Assembly (NCBI GenBank): GCA_964554435.1
Contig: CAZKOO010000003.1
Location: forward strand, 5,252-69,251
Length of the DNA stretch: 64,000 bases
Source: an uncultured Candidatus Peribacteria bacterium
GTDB taxonomy: Bacteria; Patescibacteriota; Gracilibacteria; Peribacterales; Peribacteraceae
Direction of reading: 5' to 3'
The notes below the pieces were generated by a model. That model saw nothing but the letters and a program-made list of their open reading frames with translations, was not told where the DNA came from and made no database searches. This document shows positions 1 through 52,494 of the stretch, one piece after another. The translations under genes were made by a program, and so were the position numbers. Position 1 is the first letter of the stretch, and each line of letters begins with the position of its first letter.

Positions 1-1301
1 CGGGGCTTTCGTTCTACGGATCAAAAGACTACCTCGTGAAAGACATGTACATCCATCACTTCGGAGCAGATGGCATCTATATTGGAGGCGGAGGAACTCC
101 TGCAAATTACCCTAGTCCTGAACCCATCAATCCCACAGATCGTCCTGCACGGCTCGCCGACCGATCTGTGCGTGTTCACAATGTACGCATGGCAAACAAC
201 GGAAGACAAGCGATGACCGTTGTACAAGCTCGCGACGTATGGCTCAGTAATAGCCAATTTCTCGACACAGGACGAGTGACAAAATTTGGACAAATAAGTA
301 TGAATTACAGACCTGTTGAGCCCTCTGCAGGCATCGACATCGAGCCCAATTATTTTGATCTTGCGAGAGATAGTACAAACAATCGAGAGACAGGATCGTA
401 CGATGACAAAAAAATTGACGTAGTCACCGGAGATATCCTCATTGAAAATTCAAGGTTTGCAAGAAATGTTGGAGCTCAACTCACTGCGGTGCTCGGTCGT
501 CCCATCAACCCCTACATCAAAGCAGATGGCACCTGTTGTGACAGTGTCTGTAGTGCAAAATGTGCACCTCCATGGAATAGTACAAATAATAGTTTTGGAA
601 TCTGGCCACATCCACGCGTTGAAAATGTGACCATTCGCTTCTCTGATTTTCAGAGTGCAAGCGACTCTTCGCAGTACGTCATTGCTCTTGCTGCTCGCAA
701 TGGAGTTCTTGAACACTCTCTTGTGAATGCAATGGAAACGCCAAATGGAAAAATATATCTCACATTTCATGGCGGCTCGAGTACTGGACCCAATAAAAAT
801 GATGAACTCATCACAACAACCATCCGAAAAAACACCATCTTCTCAAATGACGAAGGAATTCTCTATGCGCACTGGGCAAGACATCCAATTGAAATCTCTC
901 AAAATCTCATTCGTGGAACTGCAACAATGCTCACTCCAGAAATTATTCCGAGTGCAGTAGGTGAGAAAAAGATCCTTCGCAATTTCTGGTCCATTCCTGT
1001 TCCTTCTACAGCGTGGTTCTCACCGCTCTCTGCAATCACTCCTTCCTCTCCAGGAAAAAGCATCATGCGTCTCTTTGCGAACGTCTTTGAAAACAATACC
1101 TATTGCTTAAGTGGCATGAGTGATGAATCTTTTGGATGCACGTCCTATACAGATGCAGATCGAGAGAAAGGATATGGCAATATGGATTTCGCCTCTCCTC
1201 GCCTTTCTCAGAATGAAGAGTACAGAAGTGGATGTCTGCTTCGTCCATTTGCAAACTTCACAAGTTGTACAACTACTCCATACATCTTCAGCTATCCATA
1301 A
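1..1301 (+). CDS. right-handed parallel beta-helix repeat protein (5' end outside window)
   Basis: The ORF track starts at GTG 36, but the frame stays open back to base 3, so the gene probably starts upstream. HHFGADGIYIGGGG, NVRMANNGRQAMTV, IDIEPN and ILIENSRFARNVGAQL read as successive beta-helix coils. Assigned by motif recall only. Confidence 0.6.
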   Translation, partial: GLSFYGSKDYLVKDMYIHHFGADGIYIGGGGTPANYPSPEPINPTDRPARLADRSVRVHNVRMANNGRQAMTVVQARDVWLSNSQFLDTGRVTKFGQISMNYRPVEPSAGIDIEPNYFDLARDSTNNRETGSYDDKKIDVVTGDILIENSRFARNVGAQLTAVLGRPINPYIKADGTCCDSVCSAKCAPPWNSTNNSFGIWPHPRVENVTIRFSDFQSASDSSQYVIALAARNGVLEHSLVNAMETPNGKIYLTFHGGSSTGPNKNDELITTTIRKNTIFSNDEGILYAHWARHPIEISQNLIRGTATMLTPEIIPSAVGEKKILRNFWSIPVPSTAWFSPLSAITPSSPGKSIMRLFANVFENNTYCLSGMSDESFGCTSYTDADREKGYGNMDFASPRLSQNEEYRSGCLLRPFANFTSCTTTPYIFSYP

Positions 1302-1563
1302 AATATAGCTACAATATTATAAATGTACATACATTTGTCGCCTTGATGAGCTTTGTATTCACTGTTCATGTGCGAAGCGTCAAGCGATGTGCATCTGTTT
1401 GAGGAGCGAAGCGACGAGTCTGCACATCGCAGCGGAGCACATGAAATACAGTGATCAAAGCGAATCACGAGCGACGATTTTTTCCTTGTCCCCCGAAGCC
1501 CTGAGCAAAGCGAGGGCGTAGGGGGATTTATCACCTTCTTTTGTAGCGACAAAAGAAAGGAAA
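1302..1563 (+). repeat. structured intergenic repeat element, copy A (MITE-like)
   Basis: Starts with AATATAGCTAC 1 nt after the stop codon. About 200 nt are nearly identical to 18865..19071 in the same orientation. The ends carry inverted TTTGTCGC...GCGACAAA. There is an internal 10-bp stem GCGATGTGCA/TGCACATCGC. Copy A has an extra ~47-nt GC hairpin (TCCCCC..GGGGGA) that copy B lacks. Confidence 0.75.
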
Positions 1564-1689
1564 GACTATGAAGAGAAATCATTATTCACGATCTTTTTCT
1601 GCCAAATGATGATGGTTTGGGTATATGATTAGAATAAAAAAAAGAGGAATGTAGCAAGTCATTTCTTTGTCGCTTCTCTATCATTGATA

Positions 1690-1718
1690 TTGAATGTTGT
1701 GCAAAATATTGATACAAT
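1690..1718 (+). promoter_or_regulatory. sigma70-like promoter (TTGAAT-17-TACAAT)
   Basis: TTGAAT at 1690-1695, a 17-nt spacer, TACAAT at 1713-1718, 43 nt upstream of ATG 1762. The same block is duplicated at 5006..5034. Confidence 0.45.
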
Positions 1719-1761
1719 AAAAAGATTTTTTCTCTGCATATAAATTTACCCTTCTCTCAAC

Positions 1762-4700
1762 ATGCCTCTCATGAATTCCATCCACGCTCACCGAAAGACC
1801 ATCATCGGTGCTTCGCTTGCACTCATTCTTATGGGTGTCTATTTTGCACTCCAGAAACCAGCACAAGCAGTCGTGCCATTTGAGAAGGGGGGCATCCCCA
1901 TCCCTTTCCTGGAGACATCAAAAGATGGGCAATCTGGGTTAAAAGGAGCAGTGACATTCTACGACAAACGCAATAACATCGATGTCTATGAAGTCACATT
2001 CACTGCAGGAGAAACATCGGAAGCCTTGAGTGAGAATCTCATTTACTTAGTGCACATTCCAAATGACAGCGCCATCACAGAAAAGGATTTTGATAGCGTC
2101 ATGCGCCAAACAAACGAAGGAAGAGCAGTGAATTACTATGGATATCAATACACCGATGCGCTTGCAACTGTTGAGCGTCAGAACATCAACAATGCAGATT
2201 TCAAACTTCGTTTCCCAGGACAATTCTTTGCATCCGCAAAGGCACGAGCAGAAGATGCAACGCACGGCAATGGCATTGTCAATTTTGAACGCGATCGTGG
2301 CATTACCTTCCGAAATACAAATGGATCGCTTCCAAAAAGTACACTCCAAAAAAATGCTCTCTATGTTCTGATTAGCAATGAAGCAGGAGCAAATTCAACA
2401 AAGATCTATCCAAAAGGCGCACCAGCACTCTGTGGCGATGGTGTCCGCGAAGGAACAGAAGTCTGTGATGATGGAGATCAGAACAACACAAATGCCTGTA
2501 AGAATGACTGTACAGCAAACACAGGAAATGACCCCGTATGTGGAAACGGTGTAAAAGAGGGCACAGAACAATGTGATGATGGAAACACCAACAACACTGA
2601 CTCCTGTACCAATAGTTGTACAGTCAACACTCCACCACCAGTCTGTGGAAACGGAACACGCGAAGGAACAGAACAATGTGATGATGGAAACACAAACAAC
2701 ACCGATGCGTGTAAGAATGATTGTACCTCAAATACAGGAAATGACCCTGTATGTGGAAATGGTGTAAAAGAGGGTACAGAACAATGTGATGACGGAGACC
2801 AGAATAACAATAACCTCTGTCGTACCGATTGTACTGTTGGTCTTCCTGTACCCTTTACTACAGAGTCAGCCAAAACTACTGTGGTAATTGATCCTGAGAT
2901 CACTACAAATCCCAATACAGAAAACGAAGATATAATATTCACCTCATTGTATTTACCAGAGGAAGGAATCATTCAATTTCCTCAGTCAAATCAAGTAACG
3001 GAAGCAACGAACCGATTCAGCCTAAAGGCAAGAGAAGGCATTTCCCCAAAGGTAACACAACTTCGTTTTAGAGTAACATCCCCTTCTCAGCCAGCGGAAA
3101 ATTTCACACTCTGGAAAGACACAAATAATGATGGAGAAGTTGATCAAAAAATAAATATTGTCCCATTTTTCGACACAACACTCGATAATCCAATTATCAT
3201 AAAAAATTTAAGTTTTCCTTTCTTATCTCACTTACCACTTATTTTCCCTATCAATGATCAAATAACACTCTCCTCGACTCCAGTTATTTTTGAAGTACAT
3301 GTATCTCCTGCTAAAAATACATATACTCAGGAGGCTATGTTTTATTTAGTTAGTCCACTTTTCTTTTCAGGAACCTTTTATCAAGACTCAATAGCGTACC
3401 CTCTGGGTATTGGTCATAGTGTGCTAGCAAAAGAATGTGGAGAAAATGAATGTACAGTAAAAGAAAATATGAGCCACTCCGGAAAATCTATACATTTTGG
3501 AAATGTTGGTATTACTCCTCCTTGGAATACTGATATAAACATCAGGAACTTATCGATATATAAGAATAATGGTCCTGAGAAAGGAGTCATCTTTCCTCAG
3601 CTACCTAAACAACCAATGGAAACATTTACCAGGTTCACTCTTGAAGCAAGAGAGGGCATCTCCCCAACAGTGAAGCAGCTTGAATTTACCAATGGTATTG
3701 GTGATAATACTTATGGTCGTTTACTTCAATACCATTTTGTAGATAAAACGACAATCCCCACCACTCTATTTTCTCAGGGTTCCATCTCTATGGCACACGA
3801 TTACGAGCTCTGGAAAGACACAGATGATGATGGAATTGTTGATCAAAAAATAAACAGTAAACCGATCGGTGAAACAACAAATGTACTTGTTCTTTCAATT
3901 GATGATCAAATCACATTGAGAAAAAGGCCAACTATCTTTGAACTACATGGGCGTCCTCAGGCAAAAGGATTACTACGCATCACACTCAAAGGAGATAGTG
4001 CAATTGATGCATTTAGTATAAAAGCAGAAGGTTGTGGGGAGAATCCATGTACAATCACTGAACCACATTATGGAGGACAACCAATTTTCTTTTTCTCTCC
4101 CGATGGTTCTAAGCCACTCAATCTTCCTCTCTTAATAGAACAAATAGAGAAAACATCCACAGGAACGATAAAAGCAAACGAAAGAACATCTATCTTTGCC
4201 TTCAAGGCAAGATCAAGCCTGTACAATGGCAATAATATTGCCTTGAAGGCACTAAAATTTAAAGTAGTCAGTGGTGTTCCGAGCGATGCGCGCTACGAAT
4301 TGTGGTACGACAATGATCATAATGGAGAAGTAGAAACACAGTCCCCCATTCTTGGAACAATTGACCCTGTATCAAAAATTGTTACCTTTGAAGCAGAAAA
4401 TGGAGTCATTCTAGGATCTTTGATGGATGATCACGTACAACAACTCTACGAAGTTCATGCCATTCACGATCCTGTAGCATCAGCAAACAACACCGAGTTT
4501 AAGATGACCTTTGCAATTACAGATCCTCTCTATATCACTGCCGTAGAAATTTTTAATGACGATCTAGCCAGCGCACAACCAATAAATGGGCTCCGAACGA
4601 ACGGTATCGATTATAAGGGAAGACATAATATTTTTGTCACAGAGAAACAATCCACAACATTTACTCTGAATACCATTACCGACATTAGTCCTCTCTGTGG

Positions 4701-4827
4701 TAATTCCTATAAAGAAGAAGGTGAAGAGTGTGATAATGGAATGCTAAATGGTGTAATTTGTACAGCGCAAGCAGGACAATCGTGTACTTACTGTTCCTCT
4801 ACTTGCACTTCAAAAACAGGACAATAA
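1762..4827 (+). CDS. large secreted/anchored cysteine-rich-repeat surface protein (adhesin-like), paralog 1
   Basis: 1021 aa. Has an N-terminal hydrophobic anchor (IIGASLALILMGVYFAL). Four tandem ~35-aa repeats CG[DN]G..EGTE.CDDG..NN..C..DC match the Myxococcus-type cysteine-rich repeat. Three large modules each carry LW.D.[ND].DG.VD. A fifth Cys-rich repeat sits at the C-terminus. Confidence 0.8.
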   Translation: MPLMNSIHAHRKTIIGASLALILMGVYFALQKPAQAVVPFEKGGIPIPFLETSKDGQSGLKGAVTFYDKRNNIDVYEVTFTAGETSEALSENLIYLVHIPNDSAITEKDFDSVMRQTNEGRAVNYYGYQYTDALATVERQNINNADFKLRFPGQFFASAKARAEDATHGNGIVNFERDRGITFRNTNGSLPKSTLQKNALYVLISNEAGANSTKIYPKGAPALCGDGVREGTEVCDDGDQNNTNACKNDCTANTGNDPVCGNGVKEGTEQCDDGNTNNTDSCTNSCTVNTPPPVCGNGTREGTEQCDDGNTNNTDACKNDCTSNTGNDPVCGNGVKEGTEQCDDGDQNNNNLCRTDCTVGLPVPFTTESAKTTVVIDPEITTNPNTENEDIIFTSLYLPEEGIIQFPQSNQVTEATNRFSLKAREGISPKVTQLRFRVTSPSQPAENFTLWKDTNNDGEVDQKINIVPFFDTTLDNPIIIKNLSFPFLSHLPLIFPINDQITLSSTPVIFEVHVSPAKNTYTQEAMFYLVSPLFFSGTFYQDSIAYPLGIGHSVLAKECGENECTVKENMSHSGKSIHFGNVGITPPWNTDINIRNLSIYKNNGPEKGVIFPQLPKQPMETFTRFTLEAREGISPTVKQLEFTNGIGDNTYGRLLQYHFVDKTTIPTTLFSQGSISMAHDYELWKDTDDDGIVDQKINSKPIGETTNVLVLSIDDQITLRKRPTIFELHGRPQAKGLLRITLKGDSAIDAFSIKAEGCGENPCTITEPHYGGQPIFFFSPDGSKPLNLPLLIEQIEKTSTGTIKANERTSIFAFKARSSLYNGNNIALKALKFKVVSGVPSDARYELWYDNDHNGEVETQSPILGTIDPVSKIVTFEAENGVILGSLMDDHVQQLYEVHAIHDPVASANNTEFKMTFAITDPLYITAVEIFNDDLASAQPINGLRTNGIDYKGRHNIFVTEKQSTTFTLNTITDISPLCGNSYKEEGEECDNGMLNGVICTAQAGQSCTYCSSTCTSKTGQ

Positions 4828-4867
4828 AATAGACGAAGGAGATTTTCCAAAAAAAAACGGATATCTC

Positions 4868-4930
4868 CTTCGTCCATTTGCAAGCTTCACAAGTTGTACA
4901 ACTACTCCATACATCTTCAGCTATCCATAA
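4868..4930 (+). pseudogene. orphan duplicate of the last 20 codons + stop of the beta-helix gene
   Basis: 63 nt equal 1239..1301 with 1 mismatch and read LRPFASFTSCTTTPYIFSYP*. No ORF leads into the fragment. Confidence 0.7.
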
Positions 4931-5005
4931 AAAGAAAAATAATTCATTTCAACAAAAGATACAAGGATTGCAAGTCATTTCTTTGTCGCTTCTCTATCAT
5001 TGATA

Positions 5006-5034
5006 TTGAATGTTGTGCAAAATATTGATACAAT
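5006..5034 (+). promoter_or_regulatory. duplicated sigma70-like promoter (TTGAAT-17-TACAAT)
   Basis: 4970..5043 duplicates 1654..1727 with ~1 mismatch. The -35 is at 5006-5011 and the -10 at 5029-5034, 24 nt upstream of ATG 5059. Confidence 0.45.
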
Positions 5035-5058
5035 AAGAAGATTCTTTTTCTCTTTTCT

Positions 5059-5559
5059 ATGAAGATTTCTTCCATCATTCTAAGCGCCATCCTCCTTGCG
5101 AGTGTGCCTAGTGCTGTTTCTGCCTACCTTTCACCAGAGCAAGTCTTTGGTGGACAAGGAACTGTTGCAACCCCTCCTCCTACCCCACGCGAAGGAGAAG
5201 ATCGTGTCACCACACAGCAAGAAGAGAGTGCAAGACGACGAGAGGAAGAACAGCAAGCTCTTCGTCCAAATTATTTGGAGCCACAAAATACGTATATCCC
5301 AACCACAACATCGAGTGCTTCAAAGAATCCGTTTAGCGATCAGGCACAGTACGAACGACGAATGGAAAAATTGAACGAGAAGAAATCACAACCCACCATC
5401 ATCATTGGAGGAAATGGCTCAGTCACCGATGCGCGTGGGAATGTACTGCATAGTGGCGCCCCTCTTGTCTCTCAAACAGGACCCGAAAGCATGATGGCTC
5501 TCGCTCTTCTTGGTATTGCAGCCCTGAGCACACTTGCTTACGCCTTTGCGAAAAACTAA
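5059..5559 (+). CDS. small secreted Pro/Glu/Gln-rich protein with C-terminal membrane anchor
   Basis: Signal peptide MKISSIILSAILLASVPSAVSA, a low-complexity middle, and a C-terminal GPES + hydrophobic helix + KN tail. Confidence 0.6.
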   Translation: MKISSIILSAILLASVPSAVSAYLSPEQVFGGQGTVATPPPTPREGEDRVTTQQEESARRREEEQQALRPNYLEPQNTYIPTTTSSASKNPFSDQAQYERRMEKLNEKKSQPTIIIGGNGSVTDARGNVLHSGAPLVSQTGPESMMALALLGIAALSTLAYAFAKN

Positions 5560-5638
5560 CAACAAAAACGCGGCTAGAAAAGCCGCTCTTCCATAGCCAA
5601 TAGCCAATTGCCACAAGCTACTAGCCAAATCACACAAA

Positions 5639-5655
5639 CTACCTACTACCAACTA
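5639..5655 (+). repeat. dispersed 17-nt intergenic motif (variant CTACCTACTACCAACTA)
   Basis: One mismatch to CTACCTACTAACAACTA. Sense orientation, 43 nt upstream of ATG 5699, inside a G-poor TAG/TAA-rich spacer. Confidence 0.7.
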
Positions 5656-5698
5656 ATAACTAGCTACTAACCACTCTCTATCCCTTCCCATCCACCCC

Positions 5699-8600
5699 AT
5701 GTCTCTCGTTACTTCCATCCACGCTCACCGAAAGACCATCATCGGTGCTTCGCTTGCACTCATTCTTATGGGTGTCTATTTTGCACTCCAGAAACCAGCA
5801 CAAGCAGTCGTGCCATTTGAGAAGGGGGGCATCCCCATCCCTTTCCTGGAGACATCAAAAGATGGGCAATCTGGGTTAAAAGGAGCAGTGACATTCTACG
5901 ACAAACGCAATAACATCGATGTCTATGAAGTCACATTCACTGCAGGAGAAACATCGGAAGCCTTGAGTGAGAATCTCATTTACTTAGTGCACATTCCAAA
6001 TGACAGCGCCATCACAGAAAAGGATTTTGATAGCGTCATGCGCCAAACAAACGAAGGAAGAGCAGTGAATTACTATGGATATCAATACACCGATGCGCTT
6101 GCAACTGTTGAGCGTCAGAACATCAACAATGCAGATTTCAAACTTCGTTTCCCAGGACAATTCTTTGCATCCGCAAAGGCACGAGCAGAAGATGCAACGC
6201 ACGGCAATGGCATTGTCAATTTTGAACGCGATCGTGGCATTACCTTCCGAAATACAAATGGATCGCTTCCAAAAAGTACACTCCAAAAAAATGCTCTCTA
6301 TGTTCTGATTAGCAATGAAGCAGGAGCAAATTCAACAAAGATCTATCCAAAAGGCGCACCAGCACTCTGTGGCGATGGTGTCCGCGAAGGAACAGAAGTC
6401 TGTGATGATGGAGATCAGAACAACACAAATGCCTGTAAGAATGACTGTACAGCAAACACAGGAAATGACCCCGTATGTGGAAACGGTGTAAAAGAGGGCA
6501 CAGAACAATGTGATGATGGAAACACCAACAACACTGACTCCTGTACCAATAGTTGTACAGTCAACACTCCACCACCAGTCTGTGGAAACGGAACACGCGA
6601 AGGAACAGAACAATGTGATGATGGAAACACAAACAACACCGATGCGTGTAAGAATGATTGTACCTCAAATACAGGAAATGACCCTGTATGTGGAAATGGT
6701 GTAAAAGAGGGTACAGAACAATGTGATGACGGAGACCAGAATAACAATAACCTCTGTCGTACCGATTGTACCAATGGACTTCCAGTGCCATTCACCACAG
6801 AGCCAACCACAACACCTCCAACAACAACTCCACCAACTGTCACACCCCCGACAACAACTCCTCCGACAACTGTTGCGCCTACAACTGTAAATCCGCCAAG
6901 CGAAGATCTTGTCTTTACTGCATTAGAGGTACCAAGTGTAAAAGGAGTAGTATTTCCACAAGTCTCAAATCAACCAATCGAAACTTTTTCTCGATTCTCA
7001 TTACAAGGAAATGGAACTCTAAAAAAACTTGAATTTACAGCAGTGCAAGGATCAATTCCAATGGCATATGACTATCGTCTTTGGAAGGATACAAATGGAG
7101 ATGGAACAGTTGATCAAGAAATGAGTATTCGTGCAGTAAGCGAAGAAAATGCAACGCTCGTCTTTAATCTTACAAATGAAATTATTGCGACCAGCACGCC
7201 AATGATTTTTGAGCTACGAGCATTACCTCAAGCAACTGGATTGCTACAAATATTTATTGGAGGATATCCAAATAGCATCGTAGGAGATACTTGTTCACAT
7301 TCACCATGTACTATTTCTATTGGCAGAGAACATCAGCCAACCGTCTTCGCCTTCTCCGCTCATGGATCTGCACCAAGTCCGTATGCGCTCACTGTTGAAG
7401 GAGTTGATGCTCCAGCAGCAGGAATTCTTAAGGCAAATGAAAAGAAAAGTATTATGGCATTCCGTGTTACTCCTCATATTTATGATGACTCCAGTGCTTT
7501 TGGGCTCACATCTCTCAAGGTAAAAGTAGTAACAGGAGTAGCAAGCAATGCTCAATATGAACTTTGGTCGGATTCAAATGGAGATGGAGTTATTAATGGA
7601 ATTCCACGAGATGAGAGCTATGACAGTGTCTGTCGAAAAGGCGTTGTGAACGCTACAACAAGAGTGGTTACCTTTGAAAACCCCATCGATCCTACTGATC
7701 CTACAGCCACATCTAAAACCATGCTTCCTTGTACTTTCCTTGCCGTTGATGGTCAGTCAAAATACTTTGAAATTCACGCCATTCATGACCCAGTCCCTGC
7801 CACAGAATTCAAGATGACATTTGCTATTGATCAAGCGAACTATATTGAAGCTATTAAAGATGATTTAAATGATGGAACAAAGACAGTAGTCATTACCAAT
7901 ATTCGTACGAACGGTATCTGTAATGGGGAATGTAGTATTGATGTAACTGAAAAACCAACTACTCTCTTCACAGTCGATACTACCAACCCCGTTCCGCTCT
8001 GTGGAAATAAATATAAAGAAGGAAGTGAGCAATGCGATAATGGTGGGGAAGAAGGATGTTACACAAACTGTCAAATTGATGCTGGATATGAATGTACTGG
8101 CACACATCCATCTATTTGTACATTCATTGATCATGCACTCTGTGGCAATGGAAATATTGATTACAACGACGATGAAGAATGTGATGATAAAAATAAAACA
8201 AGTGGTGATGGATGTAGTAGCGCTTGTACTATTGAAGAACACTACAGTTGTGATGGGCAAGAAATTCTCGGCGATCGAAGTTCTTGCTTCCGCTGTGGAG
8301 ATGCACATTTTGAAGAAAGAGTAGAAGATTGTGATGATGGAAATACCGTAGGTGGAGATGGTTGTTCAGCAGATTGTGGTAGCACAGAAGACGGATACAT
8401 CTGTGAAACAGATACAACTGGAAAAAGTATTTGTACAACAGAGAACGGAGGAAATGGTGGCAATACCGCCGCCTGTGGAAACGGTACGAAAGAAGGCTCT
8501 GAAGCGTGTGATGCTGGCGCACAAAATGGCGTTGTTTGTACTGCACAGGCAGGACAAACGTGTACCTACTGTTCCGCTACTTGTACATCAGTCACAGTCC

Positions 8601-8968
8601 AAGGAAGTGGAGGAGGAGCTAGTCTGTGCGGAAATGGAGTCATCAATGCAGGTGAAACGTGTGACCAAGGAGGTGGAAACGTAACGAATGGAGATGGCTG
8701 TAGTGCCACTTGTACCACTGAAGCAAACTTCCGTTGTACAGGAACACCAACTACGTGTATTTCCTATCTCAATTTCGTCAAAAACCTCGCCGATACCAAC
8801 AAAGATGGCACAGTGGATGAAAATGAATCTTTTAGCTTTGTATTAACGATTGGCATCCTCTTCTCACAAGACAATCCAGTCATCGACATCAAGTACGACA
8901 TCAATGGAGATGGTGCTGGCACCATGGCAGACATCTCTCTCATTGCCCCTCTTATGAATTCCCTCTAA
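5699..8968 (+). CDS. large cysteine-rich-repeat surface protein with C-terminal dockerin-like module, paralog 2
   Basis: 1089 aa. Residues ~6-357 are identical to paralog 1. Then a Pro/Thr linker (TTPPTTTPPTVTPPTTTPP), two LW.D.NGDG modules and many further CGNG..E.CD.G repeats. The C-terminus carries DTNKDGTVDENE and DINGDGAGTMADISLI, a dockerin/EF-hand-like pair. Confidence 0.8.
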   Translation: MSLVTSIHAHRKTIIGASLALILMGVYFALQKPAQAVVPFEKGGIPIPFLETSKDGQSGLKGAVTFYDKRNNIDVYEVTFTAGETSEALSENLIYLVHIPNDSAITEKDFDSVMRQTNEGRAVNYYGYQYTDALATVERQNINNADFKLRFPGQFFASAKARAEDATHGNGIVNFERDRGITFRNTNGSLPKSTLQKNALYVLISNEAGANSTKIYPKGAPALCGDGVREGTEVCDDGDQNNTNACKNDCTANTGNDPVCGNGVKEGTEQCDDGNTNNTDSCTNSCTVNTPPPVCGNGTREGTEQCDDGNTNNTDACKNDCTSNTGNDPVCGNGVKEGTEQCDDGDQNNNNLCRTDCTNGLPVPFTTEPTTTPPTTTPPTVTPPTTTPPTTVAPTTVNPPSEDLVFTALEVPSVKGVVFPQVSNQPIETFSRFSLQGNGTLKKLEFTAVQGSIPMAYDYRLWKDTNGDGTVDQEMSIRAVSEENATLVFNLTNEIIATSTPMIFELRALPQATGLLQIFIGGYPNSIVGDTCSHSPCTISIGREHQPTVFAFSAHGSAPSPYALTVEGVDAPAAGILKANEKKSIMAFRVTPHIYDDSSAFGLTSLKVKVVTGVASNAQYELWSDSNGDGVINGIPRDESYDSVCRKGVVNATTRVVTFENPIDPTDPTATSKTMLPCTFLAVDGQSKYFEIHAIHDPVPATEFKMTFAIDQANYIEAIKDDLNDGTKTVVITNIRTNGICNGECSIDVTEKPTTLFTVDTTNPVPLCGNKYKEGSEQCDNGGEEGCYTNCQIDAGYECTGTHPSICTFIDHALCGNGNIDYNDDEECDDKNKTSGDGCSSACTIEEHYSCDGQEILGDRSSCFRCGDAHFEERVEDCDDGNTVGGDGCSADCGSTEDGYICETDTTGKSICTTENGGNGGNTAACGNGTKEGSEACDAGAQNGVVCTAQAGQTCTYCSATCTSVTVQGSGGGASLCGNGVINAGETCDQGGGNVTNGDGCSATCTTEANFRCTGTPTTCISYLNFVKNLADTNKDGTVDENESFSFVLTIGILFSQDNPVIDIKYDINGDGAGTMADISLIAPLMNSL

Positions 8969-8974
8969 TTCTTC

Positions 8975-10015
8975 ATGCAAAAAAAGGTACTTCTCTCTAT
9001 CGGCGGACTCGTCGTTGCACTCGGCATGATTGCAATGCAAAAAGGATATGTAGGCACACTAAAAGGCGCTGTCACGAGCACAGGACCGCTCTCGCACAGC
9101 GAAGTGCGATCCATCATTGATACAGACTCTTCATCGGTTGGAACAATCACTATTACAGAAATGCGTAGTGCGCTCGTCAAGACTATTAAAACAGCCATTC
9201 TACAGTCTGCAAATGCGCCAATTGATGCGCCAATTGATGCGCCAACCATCCTTCTCTACGACCTTGATCGAAATGGAAGAGTCGAAAAAAATGATATTGG
9301 ACTCATGATTGGACACATTCTGCAAATTCGTCAGTGTGGCAATGGTCAAGTGTCAGGAAATGAACAATGTGATGATCGTAATACCTTCAATGGAGATGGA
9401 TGCTCCAATCAATGCACAACAGAAGCAGGATACAGCTGTGATATATTGAATGGAATGAGCGTCTGTCGTTCGTGTGGAAATGGACGCATCGAAGGCCCAG
9501 AGCAATGTGATGACGGCACAAATAATGCACTAACGTGTGTCGTTCCTGCAGGGCAAGCGTCCTGCTCGTTCTGTTCTAGTGCCACATGCACCCTTGCAAC
9601 ACAACAAAACCCATGTGGAAACGGCTCTCTCGACGCAGGAGAACAATGTGACCAGGGAAATGGTAACCGCACCAATGGAGATGGATGTTCAGCGACCTGT
9701 CAGCAAGAGCAAGGGTACCGTTGTGGAAACGCTGTGCCAAGTGTTTGTACAAGCTATACAGACATTATAAAGAAGCTTATTGGTATTGAAGACAATATGG
9801 CAGAGGAACAAAAAAATAGTATTGCCATCGATTTCGAACTTAATTTCTATTACGCAGTGTTCAGCAATGAAAATTATCCAACTCCACTCTTCGATACCAA
9901 TGAAGATGGAATCAAAAACCAATCCGATTTCGACATCAATAATGATGGTATTGTCAATGAGAGTGATGTCACCACCATGCTCGATCTCCTCTCAACCGTT
10001 GTGCCACTACCCTAA
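8975..10015 (+). CDS. cysteine-rich-repeat protein with N- and C-terminal dockerin-like modules
   Basis: Signal anchor LLSIGGLVVALGMIAM. Dockerin-like segment YDLDRNGRVEKNDIGLMIGHIL. Four repeats of the CGNG..E.CDD..NGDGCS type. C-terminal DTNEDGIKNQSDFDINNDGIVNESDVTTMLDLL. Confidence 0.75.
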   Translation: MQKKVLLSIGGLVVALGMIAMQKGYVGTLKGAVTSTGPLSHSEVRSIIDTDSSSVGTITITEMRSALVKTIKTAILQSANAPIDAPIDAPTILLYDLDRNGRVEKNDIGLMIGHILQIRQCGNGQVSGNEQCDDRNTFNGDGCSNQCTTEAGYSCDILNGMSVCRSCGNGRIEGPEQCDDGTNNALTCVVPAGQASCSFCSSATCTLATQQNPCGNGSLDAGEQCDQGNGNRTNGDGCSATCQQEQGYRCGNAVPSVCTSYTDIIKKLIGIEDNMAEEQKNSIAIDFELNFYYAVFSNENYPTPLFDTNEDGIKNQSDFDINNDGIVNESDVTTMLDLLSTVVPLP

Positions 10016-10030
10016 GTCCATTCTTTGTCC

Positions 10031-11014
10031 ATGCGCTATCTCAGCATTATTACCGGCAGCATCATTCTCCTAATTGGTCTCTCCATTCTTTTTATTTCTC
10101 AAAAGGAGCAAATCTCTTCCTCTTTACGAGGAAGTATTGTTTCCAAAGATGTACGAATTGAGCGCATTCGATCCATGGTGGACATCAACCCTGCAGACTT
10201 CACACTCACAAAACAAGAGATGAAAAACGCAATGGTGACAGCAATTATAAAAGTAATTATTGGCACCGATCTCACGTATGATTTCAGTGGAAATGGCATA
10301 CTAAATAAAGAGGATCTTCGTTTTTTCTTAGAAGTGATACAGTACCTTCTTTCCTGTGGAAATGGTGGAACGAGCAACATAGAAGAGTGCGATGACGGAA
10401 ACACGTTCTCAGGAGATGGATGTAGCGCCATCTGCACTCAAGAAGATGGATTTATTTGTAGTTATGAACCAGATTCGCCAAGTATCTGCGAAAACAATCC
10501 TCTACCATATTGTGGAAACGGAAAAACTAATGTCACAGAAGAGTGCGATGATGGAAACACACATAATGGAGATGGTTGTTCGGCACAGTGTAACATTGAA
10601 CAAGGATATACATGCGAGATTACAGCACTGGAAATGAGCGCATGTTACGTATGTGGTAATGGAAAAATAGAAATGTATGAAGAGTGTGATGACGGAAACA
10701 CCGTCAGTGGAGATGGCTGTACTGGCACAGATCCAAATCTTAGACAAGCAGCCTGTAAACTTGATTTTTGTGGAAATGGAAGGCTCGAGGTTGAAAAACG
10801 AGAGCAATGTGATGATGGTAGTAGGAATGCACTATCATGTGTTGCTACTTCAGATCAGGAATTTTGTTCATTCTGCCGTAGTGTTTGGTGCACTGTGGTA
10901 CGACAACCAAATCCATGTGGAAATGGCATTCTCGATCCAGGAGAAGAATGTGATGAGGGGCGCGAAAGCTCCTCTAGATGCTCAAATACTTGTAAAAGTC
11001 TTATTCTCATGTAA
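10031..11014 (+). CDS. cysteine-rich-repeat protein with N-terminal dockerin-like module
   Basis: I prefer ATG 10031 over the track's TTG 10025. TM helix IITGSIILLIGLSILFI. VDINPADFTLTKQEMKNAM and YDFSGNGILNKEDLRFFLEVIQYLL form a loop-helix pair. Five to six repeats of the CGNG..E.CDDGN..SGDGCS type follow. Confidence 0.75.
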   Translation: MRYLSIITGSIILLIGLSILFISQKEQISSSLRGSIVSKDVRIERIRSMVDINPADFTLTKQEMKNAMVTAIIKVIIGTDLTYDFSGNGILNKEDLRFFLEVIQYLLSCGNGGTSNIEECDDGNTFSGDGCSAICTQEDGFICSYEPDSPSICENNPLPYCGNGKTNVTEECDDGNTHNGDGCSAQCNIEQGYTCEITALEMSACYVCGNGKIEMYEECDDGNTVSGDGCTGTDPNLRQAACKLDFCGNGRLEVEKREQCDDGSRNALSCVATSDQEFCSFCRSVWCTVVRQPNPCGNGILDPGEECDEGRESSSRCSNTCKSLILM

Positions 11015-11034
11015 ATACCCCCTCCCCCCTCTCT

Positions 11035-11829
11035 ATGCGTCATGACTCCCTCAAGATCATCGGTATACTCGTCATTGTTGCGTGCATCGTATTCCTTGTA
11101 AAAAAAGGATCATTCTCATCGATACGAGGAGAACTCCTCGCGCCAGACACAACAGTGTACGAACGAGTACGCACCATGGTGGACATCAACCCTGCAGACT
11201 TCACACTCACAAAACGAGAGATGAAAACGGCAATGGTGACAGCAATTACAAAAGTAATTATTGGCACCGATCTCACCTATGATTTCAGTGGAAATGGCGC
11301 CATCAGTAAGAATGATTTGCGTCTATTCTTAAGCGCTATTCAATATCTTCTCACCTGTGGAAATGGACAAATCACAAGCCCAGAAACCTGTGACGATGGC
11401 AACACACGAAATGAAGATGGATGTAGCGCCATCTGCACGACAGAAACTGGCTTTACCTGTACTGGTACACCAAGTGTGTGCCAAGGCATTCCATCCACAC
11501 AATGTGGAAATGGAACAGTCGAAGCAGGCGAACAGTGTGATGATGGAAATACAGTGAGTGGAGATGGATGTAGTGGAACTGAGGCAAACATTCCAAATGG
11601 TGCGTGCCAACATGAATTCTGTGGAGATGGATACAAAGATGCCGATGGACACCCAGGTGACCCCTCAACCATTGAGCAATGTGACGATGGAGGGGTGTGC
11701 CAAGGAGGACCAAATGATGGAAACCCCTGCACTGGTTTTCTGGATGACCCTGCCTGTGGAGCGCAAGGAACATGTATGAAAATCAACTCTCCTATTTGTT
11801 CTGCATCATGCACTCTTCTTAGTCTATAA
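11035..11829 (+). CDS. cysteine-rich-repeat protein with N-terminal dockerin-like module
   Basis: The N-terminal ~100 aa are close to the 10031 gene (VDINPADFTLTKREMKTAMVTAITKVIIGTDLTYDFSGNGAISKNDLRLFL). Cys-rich repeats follow. Confidence 0.75.
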   Translation: MRHDSLKIIGILVIVACIVFLVKKGSFSSIRGELLAPDTTVYERVRTMVDINPADFTLTKREMKTAMVTAITKVIIGTDLTYDFSGNGAISKNDLRLFLSAIQYLLTCGNGQITSPETCDDGNTRNEDGCSAICTTETGFTCTGTPSVCQGIPSTQCGNGTVEAGEQCDDGNTVSGDGCSGTEANIPNGACQHEFCGDGYKDADGHPGDPSTIEQCDDGGVCQGGPNDGNPCTGFLDDPACGAQGTCMKINSPICSASCTLLSL

Positions 11830-11843
11830 TCCCCCATCTTCAT

Positions 11844-14519
11844 ATGAAAAACATGCGTTTCACAGCACTATCAACACCACTTTTCATTGTAACGAGTATT
11901 ATAGTACTTGCAATACTGATGGTAACAACAACACTCCTACCATCAAACAAAGCGCTATTAATACAAAATGTGGAACGCTTTGATATTCCAAGCAACGCAC
12001 GCATTGTCACAGTCACAAACCTGAATGCAGATGGACCAGGTAGCTTCACCGATGCCATGCTGCAAACAGGGCCACGTGTTATTGTGTTTGAAGTCGGAGG
12101 AGTCATCGACTTGCGCTCGAAGTCAGCACAAAGACTTACTCAAATGATTTCACTGAAGAATGGAAATGGGAATGTGGTTGTTGCAGGAGAAACAGCGCCA
12201 TCTCCAGGAATTCATCTGATTGGTGCACCACTTGAAATTCTCACATCAAATGTTGTTATTCGACACTTGAGCATCTACACAGGCACTCAATTCCCATATT
12301 ATTTAAGTTCCGATGCTCTGAAGATCGACTCATTTGGAGGAAATAACATTCGTAATATTCTCATTGAAAACAATACCTTTCTCTGGGCAATTGATGAAAC
12401 CGGAGAGCTGTGGACTGATCCTCTCAATTATGACGTTGGACGTATTAAAGATATCATTTTCCGCAAAAATATCTTCGGAGAAGCACTTCTTGCTGCTAAT
12501 CAAGGCACAGGAAATCCTGAAGGAGCACTTCATCCAAAAGGCCCACACTCCAACGGATTTTTACTCTCTCACGGAGCTCAGCAGATTACATTTGAACGCA
12601 ATATTTTTGCCAGCAACTATCGAAGAAATCCATGGATCACTGGAAATACAACGTCGTTTTTCTTAAATAACCTCATCTTCAATCCCGATCGTCATGCGTT
12701 CATCTTCTCGGGAGGAAATGTGTATGGCGACCCTCCAAAAGATGTACTAAGTGCTCAAGTAACAGCGGTAGGAAACGTTGCTTTTGCTGGTCAGGACACA
12801 CAAGATTGGCTGATGGGCGATACTGATGGACAACCAAAAATGTTCTTTGGCGCACCAGATTCAGTGGGAAGAAATACAAAACTCTATCTGGATGATAATG
12901 CATTCTTTGCAAGAAATGGATCACTCATTGGAAAGGACTGGGGTGTAGTGTATGACTCGAATGAAAATTCAGAATTTGCACTACAGGGCTCAGAAACGCC
13001 AATGACATGGTATCCGCTCTCAAGCTACTCCGTTCTCCCATCTTCACAGGTAAAAACAACTGTTTTGAACGAAGCTGGAGCACGACCATTTGATAGCAAT
13101 CGTCCGCATACAAGTCGCCTCATCAATGCCATGAAAGATGGTACAAGTCGCATCGTAAACGTTGAAGCAGACGTGGGAGGCTATCCTGTTCTTACAAAAA
13201 CAACGCGCGCATTTACTATTGCAACGCTTGACCCCATTCCCGCTGGCTATTTAGCATTATCAACAATTGGAACCAGTCAAGGACTGACATCTTCCATTTT
13301 TAACACATCTTCAAGTCAATCGAGTCTTCCGACGACAGCAACAGTTACTCTCCCGACACCTGTTGGTCAATGGCTCATGAACAGCACCACTCTTCTTCCA
13401 GACGTCTCCAATCACGGAAATACTCTCACGCTTATGGGAAGTGTACCAAAGGTCACTGCAGATACACAGTACGCAGCAAGTTTTACTGGAAACATCAATA
13501 ACTATCTCTTTGCAAACCCATCGAGCACCATCAACATGAATGGAAACAGCTTTACCATCAGTGCGTGGTTTAAGCCAACGGATGTCACGTCCGGCATTCG
13601 TGGTATCGTCTCAAAATCAAAAATGGGGCGCTTTGGCGATGCTCCCATTCAAATTTATCATGAGAATGATGTGGTCCGTATGAGTATTGGTGACTCCACT
13701 ATTCAAACGAGTGGCGACCCATATTTTCTTGGAAAAACACGCGCCGATAACATCTTCTCTCCAGCACATATTGAAGCAGGTCGATGGAACCATGTTCTTG
13801 CATGGTACGACGCAACAGAAGATGTGATGGGTATTTCAGTGAATGGCGAAACTCCTACAGTAAAACCAACTCCCTATACAAGGGGTTACGATTTTTTCAC
13901 TGATACCACACCATTCAATATTGGAAAAATGTATAGTCAAGCACCCTTCAATGGTCTCCTCTCGCACATCGAAATGTGGAGAACAATTCTCACGCCTGAA
14001 CAACGAAAGAAACTCTTCCAAGAGAACGTCCACTGCACCGCAGGAACGCTCGACTGTACGCTTTCTTCGATGATCATCAGCCCTGACGAGGAAGGATTTT
14101 ACGCATATGGTTTTGAAAAGACGACCACCCCTGCGTTCCGAGGAGTCACGAAAGATCGCGATGTTCCTTCTCTTCTTGTAACGCCAGTAAAAAAAGGAAT
14201 CTGGCTACTCAAAGACGCTGAAGCAGGAACCTATGACGTCTTCACGACATGGACCCAAACCCCCACTCGCACACAAAACGTTCCTCTCCGTATTGTGGTA
14301 CCTGGAGAGCAACTTGCACCAATTGCTACAACGATCAATCAAGCAAATGCTCCGCGTATTGACTCTTCATTTGGCAATGGAAAATGGCAAAAGATTGGCA
14401 GTGTAACACTGCTGAACCGAGGATCGATTCGCGTTGAACTCTCACCTGGAACATCGAGTACGAACGCAAGAACAACACTCGATTCTGTGCTATTTCAGAA
14501 GAAAACAATCCTACAATAG
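11844..14519 (+). CDS. secreted pectate-lyase-fold beta-helix protein fused to a LamG/concanavalin-like domain
   Basis: 891 aa with a signal anchor. VTVTNLNADGPGSFTDAMLQTGPRVIVFEVGGVIDL resembles the pectate-lyase N-terminal motif. GNSFTISAWFKPTD...GRWNHVLAWYD is typical of the LamG (Laminin_G_3-like) fold. Confidence 0.6.
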   Translation: MKNMRFTALSTPLFIVTSIIVLAILMVTTTLLPSNKALLIQNVERFDIPSNARIVTVTNLNADGPGSFTDAMLQTGPRVIVFEVGGVIDLRSKSAQRLTQMISLKNGNGNVVVAGETAPSPGIHLIGAPLEILTSNVVIRHLSIYTGTQFPYYLSSDALKIDSFGGNNIRNILIENNTFLWAIDETGELWTDPLNYDVGRIKDIIFRKNIFGEALLAANQGTGNPEGALHPKGPHSNGFLLSHGAQQITFERNIFASNYRRNPWITGNTTSFFLNNLIFNPDRHAFIFSGGNVYGDPPKDVLSAQVTAVGNVAFAGQDTQDWLMGDTDGQPKMFFGAPDSVGRNTKLYLDDNAFFARNGSLIGKDWGVVYDSNENSEFALQGSETPMTWYPLSSYSVLPSSQVKTTVLNEAGARPFDSNRPHTSRLINAMKDGTSRIVNVEADVGGYPVLTKTTRAFTIATLDPIPAGYLALSTIGTSQGLTSSIFNTSSSQSSLPTTATVTLPTPVGQWLMNSTTLLPDVSNHGNTLTLMGSVPKVTADTQYAASFTGNINNYLFANPSSTINMNGNSFTISAWFKPTDVTSGIRGIVSKSKMGRFGDAPIQIYHENDVVRMSIGDSTIQTSGDPYFLGKTRADNIFSPAHIEAGRWNHVLAWYDATEDVMGISVNGETPTVKPTPYTRGYDFFTDTTPFNIGKMYSQAPFNGLLSHIEMWRTILTPEQRKKLFQENVHCTAGTLDCTLSSMIISPDEEGFYAYGFEKTTTPAFRGVTKDRDVPSLLVTPVKKGIWLLKDAEAGTYDVFTTWTQTPTRTQNVPLRIVVPGEQLAPIATTINQANAPRIDSSFGNGKWQKIGSVTLLNRGSIRVELSPGTSSTNARTTLDSVLFQKKTILQ

Positions 14520-18864: not shown

Positions 18865-19071
18865 AATATAGCTACGTACATTTGTCGCCTTGATGAGCTT
18901 TGTATTCACTGTTCATGTGCGTAGCGTAAAGCGATGTGCATCTGTTTGAGGAGCGAAGCGACGAGTCTGCACATCGCAGCGGAGCACATGAAATACAGTG
19001 ATCAAAGCGAATCACGAGCGACGATTTTTTCTTTCGTTTCCTTTCTTTTGTAGCGACAAAAGAAAGGAAAA
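18865..19071 (+). repeat. structured intergenic repeat element, copy B
   Basis: Starts with AATATAGCTAC 7 nt after the TAG of the amidase-SpoIID gene. Near-identical to copy A apart from two indels. Ends with the CTTTTGTAGCGACAAAAG hairpin. Confidence 0.75.
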
Positions 19072-19157
19072 TGAGAAACGACATCATTCTTGGTGTCGAT
19101 TAATGAAAAAGTATAGTGGTTTGGCTATAAATCGATAAAATGTTTGCTTTGAGTGTT

Positions 19158-20601: not shown

Positions 20602-20628
20602 GGGGATGAGTGGGTAGTGGGGAGTAAT

Positions 20629-20645
20629 TAGTTGTTAGTGGGTAG
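20629..20645 (-). repeat. dispersed 17-nt intergenic motif (variant CTACCCACTAACAACTA on minus strand)
   Basis: The plus strand reads TAGTTGTTAGTGGGTAG. Sense to metK, 27 nt upstream of its ATG. Followed by an AGCTATTAGCTATTAGCT low-complexity tract. Confidence 0.7.
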
Positions 20646-20963
20646 TGGCAGTTAGCTATTAGCTATTAGCTTGTAGCGATCAGTAAGTAATAAATCTGAA
20701 CGCAGGGGGAAGAGGACACACTAGGGTAACAAAAGAGAAATCTTACAAGAAAAACCTTTCGACATCTGAGAGAGGAAAGAAATGCTTATTCACTATCTCT
20801 CCCAAATGATTGGGCTGGAGGAACCACCATTTCACGCGGGAAGGGTTGGTAGATGCGTTGTGACGAGCCAGATCTCGATTCCGCATCATTCTGGATAGAC
20901 GATGATGTGCACTCACTATACTCCGTTTTTCCGTGATGCAAATATTGACTTTTAGAAGAAAAT

Positions 20964-25297: not shown

Positions 25298-25846
25298 ATG
25301 CATCTGCCACTCTCTCTCCAAAAAAAACTAAGCATCCTCTTCCCAGAGCAAAAAGAACGCGATGCATTCATCATCGAAACAATCGAAAAAGCCATAGAAC
25401 ACAACACGTCATCAAACGCTGAAACGAACATCGTAGTAGGGGGAACTCTTCATCTTTTTTCTGATGGAGGCTCGCGCGGAAACCCCGGTCGTGCTGCCAT
25501 TGGCTGTGTGCTGATCGATCCGCACACAGGAACCATTCTCAAAGAACATGGCGTAACCATTGGCATTGAAACAAACAACATCGCAGAGTACAAAGCACTC
25601 ATTGAGGGGTTACGCATAGCGCAGAACTATCACCCTAATGCGCTCATCTGCCACCTCGACTCTGAGCTTGTCGTGAAGCAACTCAAAGGAGAATACAAAG
25701 TAAAGATGCCGTCCTTTCAACCACTCATTGCCGAAATTGTGACACTCTGCAAGCACTTTCCTTCAGTGTCATTTGTGGCAATCCCCCGCGCTCGCAACAG
25801 CCACGCCGATCGCCTCGTGAACGAAGCATTGGATGGGAGGAGGTAG
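25298..25846 (+). CDS. RNase H (type 1, RVT_3-like) with N-terminal extension
   Basis: LFSDGGSRGNPGRAAIGCVL, ETNNIAEYKALIEGL, LDSELVVKQLKGEYKVK, PRARNSHADRLVNEAL. Confidence 0.85.
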   Translation: MHLPLSLQKKLSILFPEQKERDAFIIETIEKAIEHNTSSNAETNIVVGGTLHLFSDGGSRGNPGRAAIGCVLIDPHTGTILKEHGVTIGIETNNIAEYKALIEGLRIAQNYHPNALICHLDSELVVKQLKGEYKVKMPSFQPLIAEIVTLCKHFPSVSFVAIPRARNSHADRLVNEALDGRR

Positions 25847-45723: not shown

Positions 45724-45724
45724 T

Positions 45725-46162: not shown

Positions 46163-46205
46163 TACATATATACTACCTCATTACACCCTTCCCTGTCAAT
46201 ATCTC

Positions 46206-48707: not shown

Positions 48708-48708
48708 T

Positions 48709-49098: not shown

Positions 49099-49172
49099 AC
49101 AAGGAAATCATGATTGCAACAACTCATTTTCTCTTGCATCTCTGATTGAAGAAGGTGTACATTAGTTCACCT

Positions 49173-52055: not shown

Positions 52056-52064
52056 GAGAGTTGG

Positions 52065-52090
52065 TAGTTGTTAGTAGGTAGTTGTTAGTC
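52065..52090 (-). repeat. dispersed 17-nt motif (exact) plus partial tandem copy
   Basis: The plus strand reads GGTAGTTGTTAGTA|GGTAGTTGTTAGTC, a 14-nt unit twice. Sense to recJ, 9 nt upstream of its ATG. Forms an inverted pair with 52478..52494. Confidence 0.75.
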
Positions 52091-52091
52091 T

Positions 52092-52442: not shown

Positions 52443-52477
52443 AGAGTGGATTGTATGGCAAGAAAATCTACAATCAA

Positions 52478-52494
52478 CTACCTACTAACAACTA
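52478..52494 (+). repeat. dispersed 17-nt motif (exact CTACCTACTAACAACTA)
   Basis: Lies 36 nt upstream of ATG 52442 but in antisense orientation to it. It is the inverted partner of 52065..52081. Confidence 0.75.

Follow-up and report, generated by a model that had tools for sequence, protein, structure and literature searches.

How can two neighbouring genes with strongly diverged 3' parts share an apparently perfect repeat of more than 1 kb at their 5' ends? The question is raised by a locus on contig CAZKOO010000003.1 of an uncultured bacterium of the Peribacteria, a lineage of the candidate phyla radiation (CPR), from which a stretch of 64 kb was analysed (the window; all coordinates are positions in it). 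The two genes, named B1 and B2 here, are listed below together with the repeat; the sequence between the repeat copies is referred to as segment M (2835-5712). We regard B1 and B2 as tandem, anciently diverged paralogs. Patchy homologous gene conversion would have homogenised their 5' module, and the assembler would have collapsed the differences that remained in it. This explanation is probable, with room for doubt concerning its mechanism.

1762..4827, forward strand: gene B1, 1021 aa, with signal peptide (AQA/VV), Peribacteria-specific N-domain, four DUF4215 Cys repeats, three beta-sandwich modules and one terminal Cys repeat
5699..8968, forward strand: gene B2, 1089 aa, with the same 5' module, a Thr/Pro-rich linker, two beta-sandwich modules, 5-6 Cys repeats and a dockerin/EF-hand-like C-terminus
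1776..2834, forward strand: repeat copy 1, exact as written in the window
5713..6771, forward strand: repeat copy 2, exact as written in the window, with evidence from depth and from contigs of an independent assembly

The exact repeat and its limits

The original prediction, made from the letters of the sequence, described 1776..2834 and 5713..6771 as identical, and the window indeed contains a direct repeat with 1059 of 1059 positions identical. Its limits are exact and maximal, and an identity over 1,059 bp is well beyond chance expectation. The repeat spans codons 6-358 in the open reading frames (ORFs) of both genes. Its content, given in the prediction as a signal region, an N-domain and four Cys-rich repeats, was found to be the signal peptide, an N-domain of ~190 aa and four Cys repeats of the DUF4215/TIGR02232 type.

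The prediction also stated that the identity ends abruptly. This is correct for the exact tract, which stops at 2834, but the homology goes on at both sides. To the left of the repeat, 11 of 15 nt still match between the copies, and codons 2-5 of B1 and B2 differ (PLMN vs SLVT). To the right of 2834, the peptide T-x-GLPVPFTTE is conserved with saturated third positions, seven of the 11 conserved codons differing there, and the C-terminal parts of B1 and B2 retain 38 % identity over 425 aa (E 2e-72). The C-termini, which had been described as swapped, are therefore homologous parts of old paralogs.

Two copies in one genome

The source sample is a freshwater metagenome sequenced in three runs; Logan lists contigs of this organism under SRR7369911, SRR7369912 and SRR7369924. 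Exact-DNA searches with a B1-specific 49-mer in GTDB genomes and with a shared 51-mer in JGI metagenome contigs gave no match, and the source species is absent from both collections. The Logan k=31 contigs of the sample were used, along with an independent SPAdes assembly (ENA ERZ3430527). The k=31 contigs are interrupted precisely at the limits of the repeat and show the following depths:

1-1285: unique flank, 11.5-13.5x
1691-1805: junction from the promoter to B1, 5.7-16x
1776-1901: inside the repeat, 23.5-36x
1969-2426: inside the repeat, 20-23.5x
2572-2636: inside the repeat, 30x
2704-2834: inside the repeat, 21-26x
2805-4914: unique, with the B1-specific right junction, 12-14x
5007-5742: unique, with the B2-specific left junction, 10.6-12x
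6742 onward (6742-9500): unique, with the B2-specific right junction, 11-14x

The shared tracts of the repeat had approximately twice the depth of the unique flanks (20-36x vs 11-14x), and all four repeat junctions, two left and two right, were present as contigs at single-copy depth. In ERZ3430527, one SPAdes contig equals window 2780-5767 exactly and a 53-kb contig begins at window 6717; both break 55 nt into the repeat. Segment M, the 2,878 nt between the copies, was found at the single-copy depth of the flanks. With the repeat (R) at 2x and M at 1x, the only path through the assembly graph is A-R-M-R-B2. The repeat exists as two physically separate copies in one genome, and the two-copy layout is real. 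The two right junctions that the prediction singled out for verification (2834/2835 and 6771/6772) were both recovered, in the k=31 contigs 2805-4914 and 6742 onward and in the SPAdes contigs. A deletion between the repeats, also considered there, was not seen: the flank-level depth of M indicates that no sizeable subpopulation carries it deleted or amplified.

Against this background, a pure misassembly, with a single N-terminal module and one of the two genes produced by a chimeric join, is hardly credible. It would agree with the break of independent assemblies at the repeat, and neither full-length protein is recorded in any other assembly (exact-protein look-ups for B1 and B2 found no record). 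It is contradicted by the 2x depth of the repeat, by two left and two right junctions at 1x each, and by the bubbles with two 1x alleles described in the next section.

Differences hidden inside the repeat

Three bubbles were present inside the repeat in the source-sample k=31 contigs. Each is made up of a pair of equally long contigs, both near single-copy depth and in a 1:1 ratio, whose alleles are termed alpha and beta. The beta alleles were rebuilt from the listed differences to the window sequence.

1901..1968 (also 5838-5905), forward strand: patch 1, the differences of bubble 1 (contig span 1872-1998); beta with 15 substitutions and two compensating indels; alpha/beta depth 16.6/16.8 and 15.9/12.3
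2427..2571 (also 6364-6508), forward strand: patch 2, the differences of bubble 2 (contig span 2397-2601), two 205-nt alternative contigs, 1:1; alpha/beta depth 17.6/14.6, 12.8/10.3 and 13.7/12.1
2637..2703 (also 6574-6640), forward strand: patch 3, the differences of bubble 3 (contig span 2607-2733); beta with 11 substitutions and two indels; alpha/beta depth 15.3/14.2, 18.1/6.2 and 11.1/14.2

In patch 1 the protein reads FLETSKDGQSGLKG in the alpha and FLEVLQNGQPEPKG in the beta allele. The beta allele of patch 2 has nine differences in its first 54 nt, and its other 91 nt are unalignable at 80 %. Patch 3 encodes EGTEQCDDGNTNNTDAC in alpha and EGAEVCDDGNQIDTDAC in beta, with the Cys pattern kept. 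All reconstructed beta alleles are in frame and preserve the pattern of cysteines. The exact tracts in the source-sample contigs are 1776-1900, 1969-2426, 2572-2636 and 2704-2834, that is 125, 458, 65 and 131 nt, or 779 nt in total.

In the window, both copies have alpha at all patches. Alongside the alpha-type patch, its position 1968 (and 5905) is an A. In the source sample, this A is confined to the beta allele, and alpha-type contigs in this and in other samples have a G. The window base 1968 is thus a chimeric consensus, a combination present in none of the runs examined, and would be the expected product of independent bubble-popping at smaller k. The zero divergence over 1 kb on which the original prediction built is not upheld by three 1:1 bubbles and a window that consists of alpha written twice plus a chimeric base. 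The alternative offered there, an assembly artefact, turned out to be partly right: the zero divergence is most likely that of a collapsed consensus, but the two copies are real, as the 2x depth and the four junctions demonstrate. The reads-derived contigs carry paralog-specific variants absent from the window, which affects the degree of identity and not the existence of the copies.

Over a unique stretch of 20 kb in the window, contigs of 12-17 kb at 12-14x showed 0 differences, which indicates a clonal population and, consequently, bubbles that distinguish one copy from the other. The simplest interpretation assigns, at every patch, alpha to one genomic copy and beta to its partner; in the true copies, a mosaic, four exact tracts would then alternate with three diverged patches. 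The assembler most likely collapsed the patches and wrote one consensus twice, which gave rise to the apparent perfect repeat. A third paralog as source of the beta alleles was rejected, as the shared tracts are at 2x and not 3x, and no beta-like sequence was found elsewhere in the window.

The depths alone (alpha and beta each ~1x, shared tracts ~2x) would fit equally well to a mixture of two strains at about 1:1, each with two truly identical copies (alpha/alpha and beta/beta), so that the window would be right for one of them. Alpha-type sequence does occur in other samples. The two strains would, however, differ only in the repeat, given that the 20 kb of unique sequence and flanks of 2.1-3.5 kb were present in long contigs with zero differences at full depth, and no run contained the window's combination of alpha with A at 1968. 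Simple single-nucleotide bubbles may be popped in Logan contigs, hence the zero-difference test is not absolute. Overall, such a mixture appears improbable.

Origin of the shared 5' module

The sequences upstream of B1 and B2 are partly duplicated as well:

1230..1303, forward strand: fragment a, the tail of the upstream gene A (last ~24 codons and stop), original of a 74-nt duplicate
1654..1735, forward strand: promoter block p, directly preceding B1, with a promoter-like TTGAAT-17-TG-TACAAT at 1690-1718
4859..4932, forward strand: fragment a', a non-coding copy of the gene A tail, 71/74 (96 %) identical to a and present in the independent assembly L027
4970..5051, forward strand: promoter block p', preceding the small gene, with the same promoter-like site at 5006-5034
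5059..5559, forward strand: small conserved gene, 166 aa, with signal peptide, a PTIIIGG...NGNVLHSGAP core, a C-terminal TGPES motif and a transmembrane (TM) helix

The duplicated gene tail had been noticed in the original prediction with one mismatch; the duplicate is real, with two mismatches in the coordinates given there and three over the full 74 nt. The duplication of the promoter block ahead of the small gene was likewise recovered, with 79 of 82 positions identical (96 %) between 1654-1735 and 4970-5051. In copy 1, p leads to the start codon with no small gene in between.

The history of the two genes is best read from their relatives. Tandem N-domain paralogs are present in at least 14 related genomes, where they are 28-52 % identical in the N-domain, compared to 99-100 % in the window. 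A neighbour-joining (NJ) tree separates two old N-domain clades, type 1 with the gene next to the small gene and type 2 with the one behind it; both window copies belong to type 1. The C-terminal parts of B1 and B2 are weakly homologous to the type-1 genes of relatives (26-28 %). By identity as well as in the tree, the paralogs are closer to each other within this genome than paralogs are in relatives, which is the pattern of concerted evolution. A set of exact tracts embedded in anciently diverged homologous sequence points to gene conversion or recombinational replacement and not to a fresh duplication of the whole gene. Gene conversion had been proposed in the original prediction, and the 2x depth, the four junctions, the exact tract within old divergence and the 28-52 % identity of paralogs in 14 or more relatives speak in its favour. 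RecJ, RecR and SSB are encoded in the window, and recA and the Ruv pathway were reported for Peribacteria (PMC4736985), so that the machinery for general homologous recombination would be available.

The flanks give an indication of timing. Between fragments a and a' and between blocks p and p', 6 of 156 positions differ in total; had the coding tracts diverged to the same degree, 779 nt without a difference would have a probability of ~1e-13. It follows that the homogenisation of the coding tracts postdates the copying of the flanks or was independent of it. This bears on the possibility that a recent partial duplication or allelic replacement produced the repeat, either by copying the unit of a, p, (small gene) and 5' module onto an older paralog, or by exchanging the 3' part of a newly made duplicate for a diverged allele, with the patches as later short imports. 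The 96 % identity of the a and p copies suggests a recent event that took in non-coding flanks, the right end of the tract lies at the edge of a Cys repeat, a plausible crossover site, and a similarly abrupt shared 5' end of 435 nt occurs in another Peribacteria metagenome-assembled genome (MAG). A single age nevertheless misfits 6 of 156 differences in the flanks against none in the 779 nt of coding tracts, and no donor of the beta patches was found in the 64-kb window. Recombination between homologous copies would still be required, and the proposal differs from gene conversion between old paralogs only in timing. We consider it unlikely, if deserving more attention than the other alternatives.

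Under the preferred explanation, gene conversion between old tandem paralogs, the ancestor of both genes would be a type-1 N-domain gene. The unit of a, p, small gene and type-1 gene would have been duplicated, by which B1 gained a copy of the operon promoter and a' was left behind B1. The small gene would then have been lost from the first copy and a dispersed element inserted there. While the 3' parts diverged over a long time, the 5' ~1.06 kb, and at some time also the upstream pieces, may have undergone repeated intrachromosomal conversion of short tracts. The outcome would be the four exact tracts (125, 458, 65 and 131 nt), split by three patches that were not converted or diverged again.

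We infer this mechanism and order of events from the present arrangement, and several points weigh against them. That a non-functional a' is kept at 96 % beside C-termini at 38 % sits poorly with a simple history of old duplication and conversion, unless conversion tracts extended upstream or a partial duplication happened more recently. Collapse of the patches during assembly is deduced from the bubbles and the chimeric base 1968. The k=31 contigs are not reads, and they neither phase alpha and beta nor assign the alleles to B1 or B2. The genomes of close relatives are too shallow to reveal the state before conversion. The mixture of two strains differing only at the repeat, discussed above, also counts among these points.

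The prediction had further suggested an exchange of cassettes leading to surface variation. In such a programmed system, the export and N-terminal module would stay constant and C-terminal cassettes would be exchanged behind it. Genes that agree in the 5' module and differ in their 3' parts are what one would expect of it, a second pair of this kind exists in another Peribacteria genome, and strain variation in large extracellular proteins was reported for Peribacteria (PMC4736985). On the other side, both genes are complete, and the 64 kb contain no silent cassettes in the form of promoterless partial copies, nor further N-domain copies. There are 0 inverted repeats in 1-12000, and none of the ~46 larger ORFs scanned had a Pfam match to a site-specific recombinase, transposase or reverse transcriptase; for these reasons an inverton and a transposon were rejected, too. 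Segment M at 1x argues against subpopulations with excision or amplification, and the C-termini are old paralogs with 38 % identity. The patch changes are substitutions of all kinds and not adenine-specific, hence not those of a diversity-generating retroelement (DGR); a DGR target was also rejected for lack of a reverse transcriptase, the PF13456 match at 25298-25846 being an RNase H-type domain. Related drinking-water, lake and river runs (X4, X6-X8, X11) were covered at only 2-4x. In the drinking-water strain of run X6, fragments of the same layout were present (the tail of B1, a'-spacer-p', the stretch from the small gene to the start of B2, and the right junction specific to B2), which indicates a stable arrangement. 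Programmed variation is therefore very improbable.

Sequences between and around the genes

Further features lie upstream of B1 and directly behind it:

36..1301, forward strand: gene A, at least 421 aa, ORF open to the window start and probably cut at its 5' end
1303..1565, strand not assigned: dispersed high-copy intergenic element between a and p in copy 1, with the start ATATAGCTAC and the terminal hairpin CTTTTGTAGCGACAAAAG
4832..4874, forward strand: hairpin directly after the B1 stop, 12 bp, -23.7 kcal/mol, z -8.0 (original a region, z -0.4)

Gene A had only a weak beta-helix signal (PF13229, E 0.018, below cut-off), and no homolog of it was found beside the N-domain locus in relatives. 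The 3' arm of the hairpin behind B1 is supplied by a', and two of the three differences between a and a' are located in it and perfect the pairing. The scrap a' may have been retained as the 3' stem-loop of B1.

A second copy of the dispersed element, which is ~200-260 nt long, is present at 18866-19075, with a 159-nt core that is 98 % identical. Both copies sit right after stop codons, one of gene A and the other of an amidase/SpoIID gene. In the source metagenome, the element has a Logan depth of 600-1400x, compared to ~13x for the genome, which indicates very many copies, and variants with and without a 51-nt insert occur. The element had no Rfam match, and an Rfam scan of the whole window yielded no family. 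Insertion of the element in copy 1 accounts for most of the difference between the spacers, 350 nt between a and p and 37 nt between a' and p'. A derivation of the 37-nt spacer from the 350-nt spacer by trimming was rejected, as there is no convincing homology.

Low-complexity motifs of the AGCTA/CCAA type (e.g. CCAATAGCCAATTGCCACAAGCTACTAGCC) occur in several intergenic regions, at 5590-5690, 20608-20670 and 52059-52495. Contigs of the sample join some of these sites in both orientations (joints 1303/5636 and 20670/20629).

The B1 and B2 proteins

Membership in DUF4215/TIGR02232 was defined by several ~35-47-aa repeats of the type CGNG..E.CDDGN....D.C...C above the curated cut-off. For PF13948 (cut-off 27 bits), E-values were 3.8e-16 for B1 and 7.9e-24 for B2; for TIGR02232 (cut-off 20.8), the scores were 69.4 and 162.3 bits. 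Both proteins belong to the DUF4215/TIGR02232 cysteine-rich repeat proteins. The same cluster contains three more genes of this family:

8975..11829, forward strand: three DUF4215 genes coding for 346, 329 and 264 aa, none with the N-domain

The N-domain had no match among Pfam or NCBIfam families. Its AF2 model (pLDDT 65.7) had a best Foldseek match to the PDB with E 0.014 and TM 0.26, which was taken as no match. Homologs of the N-domain came solely from Candidatus Peribacteria/Peribacteraceae, a CPR lineage in Peregrinibacteria. The middle modules, modelled with AF2 at pLDDT 66, gave generic beta-sandwich matches, the weak best being the CBM-like domain of the sialidase 4fj6 (TM 0.43); in comparison with MSCRAMM adhesins, the model reached a weak TM of 0.24-0.28. 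The beta-sandwich modules of B1 carry the motif LWxDxNxDG. A DUF4215 protein was found among adhesive trail proteins of diatoms (bioRxiv 10.1101/2023.03.06.531300). Judged from the predicted domains, secreted and probably surface-associated binding proteins would be a fair description of B1 and B2, and the term adhesin a guess. The description is in line with what has been suggested about Cys-rich extracellular proteins in Ca. Peribacter riflensis (PMC4736985).

The remaining window is ordinary chromosome with yebC, rpsF/R, metK, zwf, serS, purH, murA-like, a type I restriction-modification system, recJ, ssb, recR, smpB and uvrB. At 43156-50009, the restriction-modification system, made up of HsdR and then a fused HsdM-HsdS (868 aa), is followed by a Bro-N domain protein.

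An operon of Peribacteria

The operon of small gene and N-domain genes was defined in the present analysis, with no curated family behind it. The N-domain is marked by the motif RFPGQFFASAKARAEDAxHGN, and its profile matches both window genes at 1e-125 or better. In 29 Peribacteria loci (among L003, L006 and L011-L054), the small gene is located directly upstream of the first N-domain gene, which in relatives is usually followed by a second N-domain gene and more DUF4215 genes. B2 has this arrangement; B1, located upstream of the small gene, is atypical.

Across these loci, the small gene codes for 166-180 aa with a signal peptide, a core (PTIIIGG...NGNVLHSGAP) that is invariant, a TGPES/TGPAS motif, a TM helix and an RSRR basic tail, the last of which is absent from the window version. 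The window gene is 36-50 % identical to the upstream gene in at least 19 loci. Its C-terminus looks like a sorting signal. In L003, an exosortase (EpsH) gene is present ~5 kb upstream. Another small-gene homolog with 50 % identity lies on a 1.1-kb contig binned as Devosia sp. (L038, JBEBHC010000436.1), probably a binning contaminant.

In the relatives L003 and L006, the N-domain locus adjoins jag (KH/R3H), a Fic gene and dnaJ. The jag gene of the window (40397-40936) is 35 kb away from the locus. Together with a gene A that has no counterpart in the loci of relatives, this suggests that the locus has moved in the lineage of the window.

A second case in Peribacteria

A second case was found on the Peribacteria contig CAZFCB010000010.1 (L017, the same contig as L047), where adjacent DUF4215 genes have an exact shared 5' end of 435 nt (4146-4580 = 6454-6888). 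The identity begins 7 nt ahead of the ATG and stops where the first Cys repeat ends; beyond it, the two genes are unrelated. The repeat was at ~2x depth in one sample, with shallow support (4-10x). Compared to the pair in the window, the L017 pair has a dockerin-like N-terminal module without N-domain and a shorter repeat, and the same caveat of assembly collapse applies. In run X18, one contig runs from the end of the intervening segment through the repeat to the start of the segment ('goes back 2308'), which would fit a tandem or circular arrangement or else a choice made by the assembler at low depth. In the Peribacteria class, tandem Cys-rich genes with shared 5' modules may be recurrent, with the assembly caveat for each case.

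A further comparison is offered by Ca. Peribacter riflensis, of the same class, in which clustered Cys-rich proteins with signal peptides and weak similarity to a Myxococcus cysteine-rich repeat are thought to act in attachment, and in which strain variation is concentrated in Cys-rich extracellular proteins (PMC4736985). All five of five complete genomes contain one direct repeat of about the insert size, which encloses ~3 kb and was placed by read pairs (PMC4736985). The topology is that of the repeat described here, with 2,878 nt between the copies; the locus of the repeat is unnamed in that study. At 58 % GC, the genus of Ca. Peribacter riflensis differs from the organism of the window (44.7 %), and the N-domain family and the small partner gene are without mention in PMC4736985.

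Comparison with known gene conversion systems

Concerted evolution by intragenomic conversion between duplicated genes for bacterial surface or outer-membrane proteins is known from babA/babB and sabA/sabB of Helicobacter pylori, and from the opa genes of Neisseria; tufA/tufB is a further example. B1 and B2 share with these the segments of identity bounded by older divergence, the mosaic tracts, the homogenisation of a part of the gene and the reliance on general homologous recombination. They differ in that the genes are arranged in direct tandem in a CPR host, belong to an uncharacterised family and have their export and N-terminal module converted.

In cassette antigenic variation, as in pilE/pilS of Neisseria and vlsE/vls of Borrelia, gene conversion also acts on genes with a constant expressed 5' part and variable downstream parts. 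In contrast to those systems, there are no silent cassettes here, both genes have full length and each has an upstream promoter block, that of B2 being located ahead of the small gene. Moreover, it is the conserved part that is converted, and no population heterogeneity was seen.

Meaning for the annotation and for Peribacteria

For the annotation, the B1 and B2 proteins as written are probably wrong in at least one copy at the three patches (roughly 6+, 2+ and 5 residues). Where long perfect repeats occur in short-read MAGs, the assembly graph should be checked before zero divergence is given a biological reading.

Gene conversion is an ordinary, known process, and the present case is a further instance in a poorly studied lineage that leaves current concepts unchanged. 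A search of the literature on gene conversion in surface proteins of CPR bacteria found no paper. If read as proposed, B1 and B2 provide a clean example of partial-gene concerted evolution in a small-genome CPR bacterium. The conserved, undescribed operon of Peribacteria, which combines a small protein carrying the putative sorting signal with N-domain/DUF4215 proteins, is a reasonable candidate for a cell-surface or attachment apparatus of these presumed symbionts.

A more specific function is conceivable, if rather doubtful: the 5' module could be a docking and export module that is matched to the small sorted anchor protein and kept uniform by frequent conversion, with recombination at Cys-repeat boundaries swapping binding 'heads'. 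If true, an episymbiotic CPR lineage would possess a modular system of surface display, one that would be expected to recur in other genomes, for example in the 435-nt case of L017 and perhaps in the direct repeat of Ca. Peribacter riflensis.

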